Below are positions 12,883 to 41,092 of a stretch of DNA of 64,000 bases, in pieces. How positions within the stretch are numbered: the first letter of the stretch is position 1; each line of letters begins with the position of its first letter. The notes beneath the pieces were generated by a model, which saw only the letters and a list, made by a program, of their open reading frames with translations, was not told where the DNA came from and did no database searches. The translations under genes and the position numbers were made by a program. Source of the stretch: a virus (lineage: Duplodnaviria; Caudoviricetes); IMG/VR virus record IMGVR_UViG_3300023174_000037; one strand, 5' to 3'.

Positions 12883-13505
12883 TCAGCACCTAACACATGC
12901 TTGGCATGCTCATAGTGTTTTTTACGATCTTCAAGACCAATTGTACCACCGTTGATACGTTTTGTCATGGTAAGAATATCATCCTTGTCGGCCCACTGAT
13001 TGAGATTATTGGTTTCCCAGAACCAGCAAGCACCTTGTACCGCGCCTTCAAAAGTTTCTAGATAAGCTGGAACTTGCTCCACCGGAGTTTCTATGCTGTC
13101 AGCAAAGTTTGAATAGTTGCTTTTGCCTGTGAGCTGTATGAGTCCACGACCACAGTAGCGATAGCCATCGCCTGACGCTTCGTCTCCGTTGCCCATTCTA
13201 TTAGCATATATTCTGTTGGCAATGGCTTCGGCTTTGTTGGGCAAACTGGCATACTGGTTGGCCAACTCATCTGTAGGAAAATACTTAGGGAATATTTTTC
13301 TTAGACTGGCCGCACGGTAGTTTAAGTTTTCTTTGAGGAACACAAAGTTTCCGCTTTCGTGGGCGCACTGTGCTATAAAAGCAGCCACACGTGGCGGTGT
13401 GTCAATACCGTAGTCGGATAACAATTGGTTTAAAGCATTGGTCCATTGCTCTACATAAGGATTGTTGCCGATACAGGCGCCGAGTTGTTGTTGGGTAATT
13501 TGCAT
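12879..13505 (-). CDS. Endolysin, glycoside hydrolase family 19
   Basis: AAFIAQCAHESG, ENLNY, YRYCGRGLIQLTGKSNY, MTKRINGGTIGLEDR. Confidence 0.92.
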   Translation of the reverse strand: MQITQQQLGACIGNNPYVEQWTNALNQLLSDYGIDTPPRVAAFIAQCAHESGNFVFLKENLNYRAASLRKIFPKYFPTDELANQYASLPNKAEAIANRIYANRMGNGDEASGDGYRYCGRGLIQLTGKSNYSNFADSIETPVEQVPAYLETFEGAVQGACWFWETNNLNQWADKDDILTMTKRINGGTIGLEDRKKHYEHAKHVLGAD

Positions 13506-36745: not shown

Positions 36746-37072
36746 TTAGCCTGGACTGAAACTGCTGCCGCAACCACAAGTGGTCACTGCTGTGGGGTTT
36801 TTGATGCTAAAAGTAGCACCATATTGGTCTTCTTTGTAGTCTACTTCTGCACCTTGAAGATAGCCGCCGCTCATGCTGTCAACTAGGACTTGGACACCGT
36901 GATAGTCTAGATCCCAATCATCTTCGTTTTTTACTTCGTCTAGGGTAAAACCGTATTGCATGCCACTACAGCCGCCACCCTGCACAAAAACACGTAGTTT
37001 AATGTTAGGGTTATTTTCTTCGGCAATAATGTCTTTGATTTTTGCCACTGCATTTTCTGTAATTGTAATCAT
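36746..37072 (-). CDS. erpA: A-type Fe-S carrier, ErpA/IscA family
   Basis: [16 protein letters not shown] ... [14 protein letters not shown]; start ATG 37072 overlapping the SOD stop. Confidence 0.92.
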
Positions 37073-37623
37073 ATTCTTTCGTTGCAAACGTTCCAATCAA
37101 TGATTTTCCAGATGTTGTCTAGATAACGCTCTTTGTCCCATTGGTAGTCCAAGGCCCAAGCGTGTTCCCACCAGTCTACTAAAACACAGATATCTGTCCT
37201 AACCTGATGGTTTGGGATAGTTTTAATCGTGCCCGATGTGCTGAGATATACCCAGCCCGATCCCTGGATGCCCATGGCCACCTTTTTAAATTCTGCTTTA
37301 AAGTCTTCATAGGTTTTGAAGTTGGTTTCAATAAGTTCTAACACAGCACCTTTAGGGCGATTTGCGCCTTTGGGCTCTTTTAGTTGTGGGAAAAATTTGT
37401 TATGTAAAAAACTGCCAGCACGATTGAAATCTTTGTTGCCTTCGTCAGCATTATAACGCTTGGCATAGCCTTTGGCCAAATGCTCGTAATGGTATTCGAT
37501 TGTGGCTGGACTCATTACCGGTTCCAGCGCCTTGTGAGTGTAGGGCAAAGGAGTAGTTTCCAACTTGGCTGGACGAGTTGAGGCTTCTAATAATTCGATA
37601 TCTTGTCTTATACTGGTATGCAT
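37069..37623 (-). CDS. sodB: Fe/Mn superoxide dismutase
   Basis: LPY...TIEYH, GSFLH, QGSGW.YL, DWWEHAW; the four metal ligands appear retained. Confidence 0.85.
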
Positions 37624-37631
37624 ATGGATAT

Positions 37632-37850
37632 TTATCTACGTCGAACAATGCGCCCACGAGTTAGGTCATATGGACTAAATTCCATTTCCACTGTATCGCC
37701 CATCAGCACTTTGATATTGTTTTGACGCATACGACCGCTGAGGTTGGCCAACACAGGCTTTTCAAAGTTTTCCATTTTGATACGAAACATGGTATTAGGT
37801 AGAACCTCTGCTACAACCCCTTCCATTTTTATTACGTCTTCTTTGCTCAA
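37632..37850 (-). CDS. infA: Translation initiation factor IF-1
   Basis: MSKEDVIKMEGVVAEVLPNTMFRI...SGRMRQNNIKVLMGD.V.MEFSPYDLTRGRIV. Confidence 0.97.
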   Translation of the reverse strand: MSKEDVIKMEGVVAEVLPNTMFRIKMENFEKPVLANLSGRMRQNNIKVLMGDTVEMEFSPYDLTRGRIVRRR

Positions 37851-38456: not shown

Positions 38457-38774
38457 TTATTTGAACAAAATCACAGCCATTATAACAGCTTGTGTTATAA
38501 ATCCAACACCAATGGTAACAATGTTTAGGGTGTCTTTGAGCACAATAGCTCGACCAAACAACAAGACCAATCCTGCCCAAACAAACAACACAATATCCAA
38601 TCCTGGAGTGCGGTCAGACAATCCGGTCAGCAAGGCCAACAACGAAGGAATAGTTGCGGCATGCATCAGTATCACAGCCAGCCAACCCAGGGTGTCAGCA
38701 CTCACCTTGGGCAATTGCTGTTCTAACCATCCTCTAGCACACTTGAGTATTTCATCTAGTTTTTCCATGATCAT
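38457..38774 (-). CDS. Multi-pass membrane protein
   Basis: Three hydrophobic segments; ATGA-coupled to the hydrolase. Confidence 0.65.
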   Translation of the reverse strand: MIMEKLDEILKCARGWLEQQLPKVSADTLGWLAVILMHAATIPSLLALLTGLSDRTPGLDIVLFVWAGLVLLFGRAIVLKDTLNIVTIGVGFITQAVIMAVILFK

Positions 38775-39331
38775 ATCTTCTCCCCATAAAATACGTGTCG
38801 CCCTATCTTGGCCACCTGTGGCTTGCCCCATTGTGGTGTGACATAGTCTGCATGAAAATACAAAGCCGTTTTCAAGCTGGGCAATCTAAAGCCCTCTAAC
38901 AGGACCTTTTTTGCCACTTCTTCAGACTCTTTCCAGTGTGCTGGGTATATAGGTTTTACCTTGCTACTACCATCACAGAACCACGAGAATTGACAAACCA
39001 CCCGGTCCATAACGATGTTTTTCTGATACACAACACCGCAGATGTCTGGGGCAAACTTGCCGGATTCTACACGATTGATTGTGACCTGGGCCACAGCTAC
39101 CTTGCCTTCAAAAGGCTCGCTGGCGCTTTCCCAATAGATGTTTTTGGTCAAACAGGCCAATTGTCTAGTTCTATCTTCGACACTGATAAAACCTTGTCGT
39201 GCCACTTCATTTGTTACTTTTAAAATATCTAATTTATGTTGTGTTACTGTAACAACAGCAATCATCACAATCATAAATCCACAAAATTTAAAAATTTTGT
39301 TGCCTACGTTGGTTATTGAATTTAATTTCAA
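38771..39331 (-). CDS. SleB/Hydrolase_2-family cell-wall hydrolase with N-terminal membrane anchor
   Basis: CLTKNIYWESASEPFEGKVAVAQVTINRV, ICGVVYQ, CQFSW, ALYFHADY..P.W, IGRHVFY; TTG start after SD AAGGAG. Confidence 0.9.
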   Translation of the reverse strand: MKLNSITNVGNKIFKFCGFMIVMIAVVTVTQHKLDILKVTNEVARQGFISVEDRTRQLACLTKNIYWESASEPFEGKVAVAQVTINRVESGKFAPDICGVVYQKNIVMDRVVCQFSWFCDGSSKVKPIYPAHWKESEEVAKKVLLEGFRLPSLKTALYFHADYVTPQWGKPQVAKIGRHVFYGEKI

Positions 39332-39613
39332 TGCCTTCTCCTTGTCGCAATACTGTGCGTGTCAGCGGGGTGTCCAAGGCGGACGCATTGACGGTGGCTA
39401 TAGATTAGACAAAGACCTCGGGCCTCAGTGCCATACTCTTTAAGCGGTGCTTTGTTTCTCGCACGGCCTATACCATTTGTCAATGAAGAGGATTTCCGAA
39501 GTCCTCTTGGTTACTGGACCAGCTTTGCGGCACTGGTCAATCCGTTGTGGAGTAGTTCTAAGATTATAATCCTACGCTAAACATAAGTTAGCCGGTTTGT
39601 TTTTCTACTCTCT
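39332..39613 (-). ncRNA. Candidate structured RNA (long 5' leader of the cell-wall hydrolase operon, or an independent ncRNA)
   Basis: ORF-free ~280 nt after TAAGTA (39618-39623) with at least 8 hand-found helices, including a cUUCGg tetraloop stem and nested long-range pairings. Confidence 0.6.
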
Positions 39614-39700
39614 AAAATACTTATTAATATACACCCTCTCCCAGTAAAGATCTACGATTTTTGATAGGTTTTTGTCATAATATACATACATTATATTATA

Positions 39701-41092
39701 TTAATTAATTTTTGTCAAATTATGTTTGGCAAATTCGGGGACCAACCACGGAAATATATCTTGCCAGTTGGTATTTCTACGATGGTCCATGGTGTTCAAA
39801 AAGTCAAACAGTTTGGTTATTTCTACAATATTAGGAGTGCCGCTAGCTGATTGAATTGCTATACCTTTGAGATAGTCCTTGCTGGATTTTTCTTCAGGAG
39901 TAGTTTCTGGTTTTAATAATAATGCCCGTTCAAAATCCTCACTGAAAATGTTGCCAAAAATGTCTATATACATGTGACTAGGATTGTTTACACTATTTTG
40001 ATAATGATAAATTTGTCTACGCTGCCCCCAAATTTTTATTTTTTCTAGTAAATTTGGTAGAGTTTTCACAGTCAATGGCGTAACTGTTGAACTTACTATC
40101 AAGTTAATCCAATCTTGTTCTAATAAAAATTCAAAATTAGTTTCCCAAATTTTTAAATCTAACGGATATCTTACGTATTCCTGTGGCGCTCCCCAACAGT
40201 CCAAGCTGGCTGTAATTTCAAATTCTCTTAATTTGTTCTGCTCAATTAATTGTTTTATTCGAGCAACTATTTTTTGTAGATGAGGTAATTTACAATAAAG
40301 ATTGGTAAAAATTTGTAATTTTAAATTAGGAGCTGGGTGATGTTCAAATATATCCAAACACTGTTCTAATTCATCTTGGTAAAGTGGTTCGCCACCTAGT
40401 ATATTAAGCACTGTAAGGTGATGACCATTTGTATTGATCCAATCAAAAATCTTTTGTTTATTTGCCTCCATGTTTGGACTTTTTCTAAATTCTTTCTGTC
40501 CAAATTTTATATTTTCAGCATTCCACAAACTGCTGAAGTGCGGGCCGCAATATAGACATTTTAAATTGCATGTGGTGTTAAAATACACTTCTAAAATTCT
40601 TGGAGTTACGGAGATTGCTGTTGGATTTTGATCTAGTTCTGGCGGAGCATGAATTCCAGGAAAATCCAAGTTGGTAAGCCTATCACTTTGGCCGCCTGCT
40701 TTTTCAATGTTTTTACAATAGTCACAGCCAATTTTAGGCCACTGGCCGTTGAGCATTTGTTTTCGATCATCTAATTTGCTCGGGGTGTTATGAAAATCAA
40801 ACTGCTCAGTGTCAAACGTATGCAAATTAGTTCTGTGACAACTAGCTGTTTTCTCCTCGGCTAGATATATTGTGCTCCAATTCCATTTAAGTTGACAGGC
40901 TGTGTCTGTTTTAATTGGAAATACTTTATTGACTAATTTAGATTTTTTTTGAAAACTACCCTGCACATATCCAAAATTATTAATACATTCAGATTTTATA
41001 TGGTCAGGAAGAGATTCAAATTGTTCTTCGATATCACATTCGGGCCACGAAGGATCTCGTATTTGATTATAAAATTCTTGCCAGGTACTCAT
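39701..41092 (-). CDS. Radical SAM protein
   Basis: TTCNLKCLYCGP, ILGGEPL, IFTN, ITASLD; twitch-like Cys motifs (CHR, C..C...E). Confidence 0.85.
   Translation of the reverse strand: MSTWQEFYNQIRDPSWPECDIEEQFESLPDHIKSECINNFGYVQGSFQKKSKLVNKVFPIKTDTACQLKWNWSTIYLAEEKTASCHRTNLHTFDTEQFDFHNTPSKLDDRKQMLNGQWPKIGCDYCKNIEKAGGQSDRLTNLDFPGIHAPPELDQNPTAISVTPRILEVYFNTTCNLKCLYCGPHFSSLWNAENIKFGQKEFRKSPNMEANKQKIFDWINTNGHHLTVLNILGGEPLYQDELEQCLDIFEHHPAPNLKLQIFTNLYCKLPHLQKIVARIKQLIEQNKLREFEITASLDCWGAPQEYVRYPLDLKIWETNFEFLLEQDWINLIVSSTVTPLTVKTLPNLLEKIKIWGQRRQIYHYQNSVNNPSHMYIDIFGNIFSEDFERALLLKPETTPEEKSSKDYLKGIAIQSASGTPNIVEITKLFDFLNTMDHRRNTNWQDIFPWLVPEFAKHNLTKIN

Follow-up and report, generated by a model that had tools for sequence, protein, structure and literature searches.

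A conserved pseudoknotted RNA preceding cell-wall hydrolase genes of uncultured freshwater phages, a probable cis-acting leader

The virus record IMGVR_UViG_3300023174_000037 (Duplodnaviria; Caudoviricetes) was analysed over a stretch of 64,000 nucleotides (nt), hereafter the window, with attention to the minus-strand region immediately upstream of a gene for a Hydrolase_2 (SleB-type) cell-wall hydrolase. A prediction made from the letters of this stretch (the original prediction) had placed a highly structured RNA in an open reading frame (ORF)-free region there, and that region was confirmed, running from TAAGTA (39623-39618) to the Shine-Dalgarno sequence (SD) AAGGAG (39343-39338). Comparative analyses show that the RNA is structured and conserved beyond chance, with 185 homologous loci and 107 distinct core sequences. 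With modest confidence, it is interpreted as a non-coding 5' leader of the mRNA for an endolysin-type Hydrolase_2 in a clade of uncultured freshwater phages, which probably acts in cis on translation through a choice between masking of the SD and formation of a pseudoknot. The original prediction had allowed either for a cis-regulatory leader of the hydrolase operon or for an independent non-coding RNA (ncRNA); the former is favoured by the linkage to Hydrolase_2 in 160 of 160 loci and by the variable upstream neighbour. The leader, the translation start and the gene are as follows.

39332-39623, minus strand: whole leader RNA (~290 nt), comprising a variable 5' accessory domain (39610-39508) and a conserved core (39507-39346); five alignments
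39343-39338 and 39331-39329, minus strand: SD AAGGAG and TTG start codon, kept in all alignments
38771-39331, minus strand: Hydrolase_2 (SleB-type) cell-wall hydrolase, 186 amino acids (aa), TTG start, N-terminal hydrophobic anchor (Pfam PF07486, E 5e-25)

Distribution of the leader and linkage to Hydrolase_2 genes

A search with the hydrolase protein yielded 35 IMG/VR loci, and the element was present upstream in 27 of the 35 at 75-90% identity. Two conserved words of the element were then used to retrieve further loci from IMG/VR and JGI metagenomes, and a hidden Markov model of the core confirmed 185 loci, chance word matches being discarded. The 155 complete cores among them correspond to 107 distinct sequences, which is the safer count because some loci represent one contig filed in two collections. 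The confirmed loci come from IMG/VR and from lake metagenomes, and the leader occurs once in the window (nhmmer). Among 185,579 prokaryote genomes, the sole match is a 2.4-kb phage-like contig binned into a metagenome-assembled genome. The element appears not to be carried by cultured phages, and blastn of 50,697 GenBank phage records with leader types A, B and E gave no match. These types differ in the 5' domain, which is replaced in lineages of types B, C and E and almost absent in type D, with the core retained throughout.

Where at least 700 nt of downstream sequence is available, a Hydrolase_2 gene lies directly downstream of the element in every case (160/160). The linked hydrolases span two subfamilies, and the gene upstream of the leader differs among loci. 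For 27 distinct cores, the hydrolase is only 25-40% identical to that of the window and bears a signal peptide in place of the anchor, while the leader core has a median identity of 77%. By sequence classification, the window hydrolase is of the endolysin type: it falls in PHROG endolysin families, and its relatives in cultured phages (<41% identity) are annotated as endolysin or cell-wall hydrolase. Its start codon is mostly TTG among relatives, a weak codon.

Covarying helices and pseudoknots

The folding energy of the single sequence does not reveal the structure. The minimum free energy of the minus strand is -75.4 kcal/mol, as compared to -70.9 +/- 5.2 for shuffled sequences (z = -0.87), and the plus strand is likewise no better than its shuffles (z = -0.76). 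The comparison with shuffled sequences, one of the checks named in the original prediction, thus fails. Support for the structure is comparative. Collection of homologues, which the original prediction had also named as a check, revealed both conservation and covarying helices, and pairs were counted in sub-alignments of 35 diverse 5'-domain and 48 diverse 3'-part sequences and, for the other helices, by scripts. Paired cells make up 92.7% of the 5' domain of the window type (35 sequences), as compared to 85.4% for shuffles and 23-41% for slid partners; in the 3' domain (48 sequences), the corresponding values are 92.8%, 76.6% and 20-40%. Invariant bases are concentrated in junctions and loops, whereas the helices vary. 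A real structured RNA that is revealed by covariation can escape folding-energy z-scores.

The conserved core of ~185 nt begins with hairpin P3, continues with a three-way junction of P4, P6 and P7, and ends with P8 and P9. Two pseudoknot pairings involve its 3' part, of which PK1 is well supported and PK2 is a candidate.

39507-39502 with 39492-39487, minus strand: P3 hairpin, AGAGGA with UCCUCU, 9-nt loop CUUCGGAAA at 39501-39493; 107/107 paired
39386-39485, minus strand: P4, CAUUGAC (39485-39479) with GUCAAUG (39392-39386), closing the three-way junction with P6 and P7
39470-39461 with 39450-39441, minus strand: P6 hairpin, UAGGCCGUGC with GCACCGCUUA, loop GAGAAACAAA at 39460-39451; outer pairs covary
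39413-39425, minus strand: P7 hairpin, AGGCC-CGA-GGUCU; nearly invariant, CCGA in every variant inspected
39372-39384, minus strand: P8 hairpin, GUCC (39384-39381) with GGAC (39375-39372); 95% paired, three covarying pairs
39366-39370, minus strand: (C)UCC(G) tract, CCCCG in this genome; putative anti-SD that might also pair with CGGA of the P3 loop (PK2)
39366-39363 with 39355-39352, minus strand: PK1, GCUG with CAGU of the P9 loop, forming with P9 an H-type pseudoknot (39346-39366); 48/48 paired
39359-39356 with 39349-39346, minus strand: P9 hairpin, CGCA with UGCG; all five pairs covary

The pairing AAGAGGA/UCCUCUU, proposed originally and here named P3, is retained in all 107 cores with two covarying pairs. 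Its apical pairs occur as G-C, A-U and G-U (three types) and as A-U, C-G, U-A, G-U and U-G (five types). The cUUCGg tetraloop that had been proposed within it fits ~75% of the sequences, but the first U of the loop is G, A or C in the rest. Because this position varies in about a quarter of sequences, the conservation of the loop is not that of a UNCG tetraloop; the invariant part is UCGG, and UCGGAAA is found in 101 of the 107 cores. An RNAalifold consensus offered instead a long-range pairing GGACUUCGG/CCGAGGUCU, which was rejected since its pairs are lost in 23-26 sequences, whereas the local hairpin keeps all of its pairs in 107/107 via compensatory changes.

The proposed helix CAUUGAC/GUCAAUG (P4) also stood, with one pair observed as A-U in 75, G-C in 24 and G-U in 8 cores; the other P4 pairs are near-invariant with few mismatches. 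The junction strands AAAUGGUAU and AAGAGUAUGGCACUG (39440-39426) are conserved. Within this domain, several further pairings had been listed, some as alternatives. The GUGC/GCAC alternative is borne out as part of P6, a hairpin of 9-10 base pairs that forms in each of 58 distinct sequences (58/58) and whose loop is usually GAAACAAA, and GAGGCC/GGUCUU corresponds to the nearly invariant P7. In contrast, UGGUAUAG/CUAUAGCCA and GCCGUGC/GUAUGGC are each paired in only 61% of cases and ACAAAG/CUUUGU in 67%, and none of these three is conserved.

The 3' part of the core carries the clearest pseudoknot. P8, proposed as GUCC/GGAC, is upheld by its covarying pairs; its loop is pyrimidine-rich, with AUCCU in most relatives. 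P9 and two pseudoknots are additions to the pairings originally proposed. The consensus of PK1 is GSUG, just 5' of P9, paired with CASU in the P9 loop, and two of its pairs covary (C-G in 35 and G-C in 13 sequences; U-A in 45, C-G in 2 and G-C in 1, of 48). The pair states of PK1 and P9 change several times on the core tree, and slid controls are 20-40% paired. The knot is the state supported by covariation, and it lies three bases from the SD, with P9 and the SD 2-4 nt apart among the sequences. The sequences following the 3' strand of P9 are ACAAGGAG, AAAGGAG, CCGAGGAG or ACGGGAG. Two other candidates were rejected in this region. A long-range pairing UUAGCGGAG/CUCCGCUGA is 85% paired and places an uncompensated G-G where covariation with the P9 loop occurs. 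A kink-turn at the SD and ribosome-binding site was examined by inspection only, with no G-A found after a 3-nt bulge; GSUG, its would-be 5' strand, instead shows covariation with the P9 loop.

The candidate pairing PK2 would join the P3 loop to the tract that precedes PK1. Type E leaders have CGGC in the P3 loop and GCCG in the pre-P9 tract, while the other types have CGGA and UCCG; this compensatory change suggests a second tertiary pairing. The observed states are A-U in 90 and C-G in 4 sequences (type E), along with wobble variants and 13 uncompensated changes. Since the first base of the tract varies without compensation in these 13 sequences, including the window, PK2 is rated possible only.

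The 5' accessory domain of the window type contains the following elements.

39550-39610, minus strand: P1, GAGUAG (39610-39605) with CUACUC (39555-39550); 99.5% paired, two covarying pairs
39592-39587 with 39582-39576, minus strand: P1a, GCUAAC with GUUUAGC, inside P1; 92% paired, four covarying pairs
39573-39569 with 39564-39560, minus strand: P1b (weak), AGGAU with AUCUU, inside P1; 73% paired
39518-39544, including PK0, minus strand: P2 hairpin, ACCAG (39537-39533) with CUGGU (39522-39518), loop UGCCGCAAAG; 98% paired, four covarying pairs
39544-39542 with 39530-39528, minus strand: PK0, candidate pseudoknot, CGG with CCG of the P2 loop; 100% paired

The three-way junction proposed for this domain holds in part: P1 has variants such as GAACAG/CUGUUC, and GCUAA/UUAGC recurs as P1a with its covarying pairs, but AGGAU/AUCUU (P1b) is not convincingly conserved. 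Similarly, ACCAG/CUGGU survives as P2, while its proposed extension AUUG/CAGU is absent from the aligned relatives, as read off the alignment and uncounted. PK0 is compensated in one sequence (GGG with CCC, locus L185), and two further candidate pairings, GUGCC/GGCAC of the P2 loop and CGGA/UCCG of the J1/2 segment, would consist of invariant bases. Additionally, the alternative 5' domains of type B leaders (for instance, those of L040, L045, L047 and L056) bear a hairpin with a conserved loop UUUGUCCAA. This loop has a 7-base complementarity to UUGGACA at the start of P6 and resembles the 3' strand of P4; it may make a tertiary or competing contact.

Transcription, access to the SD and alternative explanations

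Two candidate promoters precede the leader.

39690-39718, minus strand: sigma70-type promoter TTGACA-17 nt-TATAAT (12/12 consensus match), ~70 nt upstream of the leader and partly within the end of the radical-SAM-like ORF
39614-39623, minus strand: TAAGTATTTT motif, candidate phage promoter at the 5' edge of the leader
39701-41092, minus strand: radical-SAM-like ORF, the gene upstream of the leader

The sigma70-type element is kept in relatives as TTGAC(A/T)-17-TATAAT and is covered by no RNA-library contig. The motif (Y)TAAGTA is found at the 5' edge of every type A to E leader whose 5' end lies within the locus, and TAAGTATTTT is present in exact form at five places in the window, each time on the coding strand, as against ~0.5 expected by chance (an estimate). 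The other four copies are at 13278, 14623, 26124 and 42500 (minus strand), and two are directly upstream of ORF starts; a related motif, YTAAATA, occurs ~30 nt before many ORFs. Metatranscriptome contigs of close relatives cover the leader in six runs from six lake or sediment studies. Two of the RNA-library contigs join the leader to the ORF (39164-39417 and 39208-39599), five end at 39592-39602, that is, 8-20 nt downstream of TAAGTATTTT, and none lies on 39626-39733. A promoter function of TAAGTA is plausible, given the uniform orientation of the copies and the ends of most RNA contigs shortly after the motif. Transcript starts cannot be proven from contigs, and DNA may be present in RNA libraries; the evidence is therefore supportive and not decisive. 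No terminator was found between leader and ORF. In the region between the two candidate promoters (39624-39700, minus strand), relatives keep a block TATTATGGTAAAAAC..ATCAAAATTTGG.GTTATT. About half of them also have a GC-rich hairpin there, whose 3' arm overlaps the CTAA of CTAAGTA and is followed by GUAUUUU; the window is without this hairpin, which could be a terminator or mark a short early RNA.

A nested thermodynamic model predicts a paired SD in most of 66 leaders (mean probability of being unpaired, 0.29), chiefly with the (C)UCC(G) tract, which lies 35-39 nt before the start codon. In the proposed mechanism, the SD would be masked by pairing of its GGAG with this tract, which is directly 5' of PK1. 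When the pseudoknot forms, the strand would continue into PK1 and perhaps pair with the CGGA of the P3 loop; the tract would then sit at the far end of the stacked helices, opposite the exit of the SD, and leave the SD free. Since the tract runs directly into the 5' strand of PK1, masking and knot would be expected, on geometric grounds, to exclude each other. The invariant junctions and the several copies of CGGA able to capture UCCG suggest that the core tunes this balance. The large core might set it in response to a signal, which could be a small molecule, a protein or a given stage of infection, with the outcome that synthesis of a potentially lethal lysis enzyme would be limited or timed. 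In this way, the leader would have the regulatory ('timing') role that had originally been proposed.

Several observations weigh against such a leader. The gene context points to no ligand or binding factor, and, as described above, the minimum free energy of the leader is no better than that of shuffled sequence on either strand. The SD-masking helix is without covariation, both of its strands being near-invariant, and the type E tract, GCCG, would pair poorly with GGAG. PK2 is compensated in one clade, yet shows the uncompensated changes in 13 sequences, with the window among them. Hydrolase relatives at loci L028-L034 (46% identity) have no such leader, and the nearest endolysins of cultured phages are also without it, with upstream gaps of 54-92 nt; therefore, the enzyme does not need the leader. 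Finally, one RNA contig of a short variant reaches ~18 nt upstream of TAAGTA, and contigs in general cannot prove transcription or 5' ends.

Different mechanisms could also account for the conserved RNA. It is possible, although doubtful, that the leader belongs to a new class of riboswitches for a metabolite or an ion, with the core as aptamer and PK1 plus the UCC tract as an expression platform that opens or closes the SD; such a phage-only class would gate endolysin translation by sensing a metabolite or second messenger of the host. The location of invariant bases in junctions and loops of covarying helices, the size and complexity similar to those of large aptamers, the pseudoknot adjoining the SD, and the mutually exclusive partners of the UCCG tract are all consistent with this, and riboswitches for cyclic di-AMP (c-di-AMP; ydaO) are generally known to control bacterial cell-wall hydrolase genes. 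However, the neighbouring genes suggest no ligand and the upstream one varies, no Rfam aptamer was matched, the alternative 'off' structure is without covariation, and riboswitches are rare in phages. A translational operator, at which a phage or host protein (like T4 RegA, gp32 or gp43) would repress or activate the hydrolase at a set time of infection, is rather unlikely. At 185-290 nt, the element is far above the size of known phage operators; autoregulation is improbable because the product is a hydrolase and no nucleic-acid-binding protein; and a conserved candidate regulator was not seen in the neighbourhood. Nevertheless, the phage possesses a replication module like that of T4 (clamp loader), a protein might contact the invariant motifs UCGG(AAA) (single-stranded, P3 loop) and CCGA (P7), and T4-type phages have pseudoknot operators upstream of ribosome-binding sites (PMC3014915).

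An independent ncRNA, whether stable, self-cleaving or processed, that merely lies in front of the hydrolase and acts elsewhere would fit with a leader conserved more strongly than the ORF that follows, with several RNA-library contigs that span the leader only, and with a complex pseudoknotted fold that is ribozyme-like. This is improbable: the element is linked to Hydrolase_2 in 160/160 loci across two protein subfamilies, the SD lies 3 nt after P9 with no terminator, contigs bridge leader and ORF, and no ribozyme family was matched; moreover, divergence of the ORF accounts for the relatives' ORFs failing 80% likeness. The cis-acting leader is strongly favoured over it because of this linkage, the varying upstream neighbour, the SD adjoining the last helix, the absent terminator and the bridging contigs. 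The RNA could also have a passive structural role with no switching, for instance as a 5' stabiliser that resists RNases or as a spacer that separates promoters and gene. Covariation does support the pseudoknotted fold only and no alternative state, and RNA structure in T4 shields GGAG sites from cleavage by RegB (PMC3014915), but the ~60 invariant unpaired bases that are kept across lineages with replaced helices and 5' domains would be unneeded for a stabiliser, and this explanation is quite improbable. It is extremely improbable that the region is coding, whether for a small protein or for additional N-terminal residues of the hydrolase. In about half of the type A leaders, one frame contains no more than a single stop, which may be due to composition, and the window has a 51-codon ORF at 39328-39483. 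However, the lengths between conserved blocks vary by 1-2 nt (39 versus 40 nt; 42, 43, 44, 48 and 49 nt), and because these differences are not multiples of three, no frame is kept and the leader is non-coding; this pattern of insertions and deletions refutes a coding function. In addition, the substitutions in stems are compensatory, and the open frame varies relative to the start codon.

Known regulatory RNAs and the genome setting

The original prediction could not match the RNA to a known class, in agreement with Rfam 15, which gave no match for the window (gathering threshold) or for types A to D. Positions 39200-39800 gave two chance matches only at E <= 10, both far below the cut-off, and six loci with variants A to D gave nothing within the element at E <= 1. 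Outside the leader, a weak isrK-like match was noted at L040:332-414 (plus strand; E 0.04, 27 bits), and a partial tRNA lies at the edge of a contig, L057:1-46 (plus strand). A literature search found no description, structure model or function for the leader. A 2023 catalogue of IMG/VR sequences contains 8,495 unnamed candidate structured RNAs and lists 879 candidates within 25 bp upstream of genes with known domains (Fremin, Bhatt, Kyrpides, PMC10690425). The leader may be among these candidates; the text of the paper mentions neither hydrolase, lysis nor endolysin.

The closest functional parallel concerns the lysozyme gene e of T4, where RNA structure at the ribosome-binding site blocks translation from early transcripts, as it does for soc, 49 and I-TevI (Uzan & Miller 2010, PMC3014915). 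T4 thereby curbs untimely translation of its wall enzyme, and in the leader an upstream pyrimidine tract could likewise pair with the SD. The T4 structure is one simple hairpin with internal late promoters, from which transcripts without the 5' arm arise, whereas the leader is a multi-helix pseudoknotted fold with invariant junctions and is far more elaborate. The late promoter of gene e is inside the structure, but the candidate promoter TAAGTATTTT is located 5' of the whole 290-nt structure, and no TAAATA/TAAGTA-type motif is present between 39370 and the SD. The autoregulatory leader of T4/T2 gene 32 also has an H-type pseudoknot in common with the leader (PK1/P9, 48/48 paired). In gene 32, the knot is ~67 nt upstream and nucleates the cooperative binding of an ssDNA-binding protein on an AU-rich tract; in contrast, the knot of the phage leader abuts the SD, no AU-rich tract is present, and the product is a Hydrolase_2 enzyme.

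Among riboswitches, the c-di-AMP class ydaO-yuaA (RF00379), reportedly described by Block in 2010 and by Nelson in 2013, is similar in context. It is said to be a large pseudoknotted leader that precedes cell-wall hydrolase genes, including those of the SleB/CwlJ/Rpf type. No match to RF00379 was obtained in 39200-39800 at E <= 10, and the architectures differ: ydaO-yuaA is pseudo-twofold with two three-helix junctions, while the phage leader has a single three-way junction and a 3' H-type pseudoknot. The signature sequences of ydaO also appear to be absent from the leader, which, moreover, is borne by phages. The SAM-II and preQ1-II riboswitches similarly have an H-type pseudoknot by the SD with covarying stems, and the PK0/P2 of the leader also has an A-rich third loop. 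However, these aptamers are 50-80 nt long and contain the SD in the knot, whereas here the SD is outside PK1, the knot is the tail of a 185-nt core, and Rfam has no match. To judge from the sequence alignments, the anatomy of the leader would nonetheless fit a generic riboswitch, with invariant unpaired bases and a candidate expression platform by the SD.

The burst size of phages is decided by the timing of lysis, which is generally attributed mainly to holin proteins. The link between a large, strictly conserved, pseudoknotted RNA and the endolysin gene in lake phages of a widespread clade points to a layer of lysis control by RNA. The leader is abundant, with more than 100 distinct sequences from many lakes and presence in metatranscriptomes, it has clean covariation, and it has no catalogued relative, which makes it a ready candidate for probing, ligand screening and structure determination. 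Should the leader bind a ligand, it would join the very few riboswitch classes that are specific to phages, and as a riboswitch it could allow a phage to link lysis to the physiological state of the cell that it infects. Should it bind a protein, it would represent a new type of phage translational operator.

The window derives from a large uncultured phage that encodes a clamp loader, of a T4-like replication module, an ATP-dependent protease and several radical-SAM proteins. No close relative of the window was found in GenBank, and the sequencing runs that contain its DNA are freshwater or lake metagenomes. Next to the hydrolase gene, a 124-aa ORF (38457-38831, minus strand) with approximately three hydrophobic segments overlaps the hydrolase 3' end by 61 nt in a different frame; it gave no family match and may be a membrane protein of lysis, such as a holin. 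A 72-aa ORF (37632-37850, minus strand), located two genes downstream of the hydrolase operon, resembles the bacterial translation initiation factor IF-1 and belongs to phrog_30201 (function unknown). A gene for an Fe/Mn superoxide dismutase, with the Pfam domains Sod_Fe_C and Sod_Fe_N, is located at 37069-37623 (minus strand).

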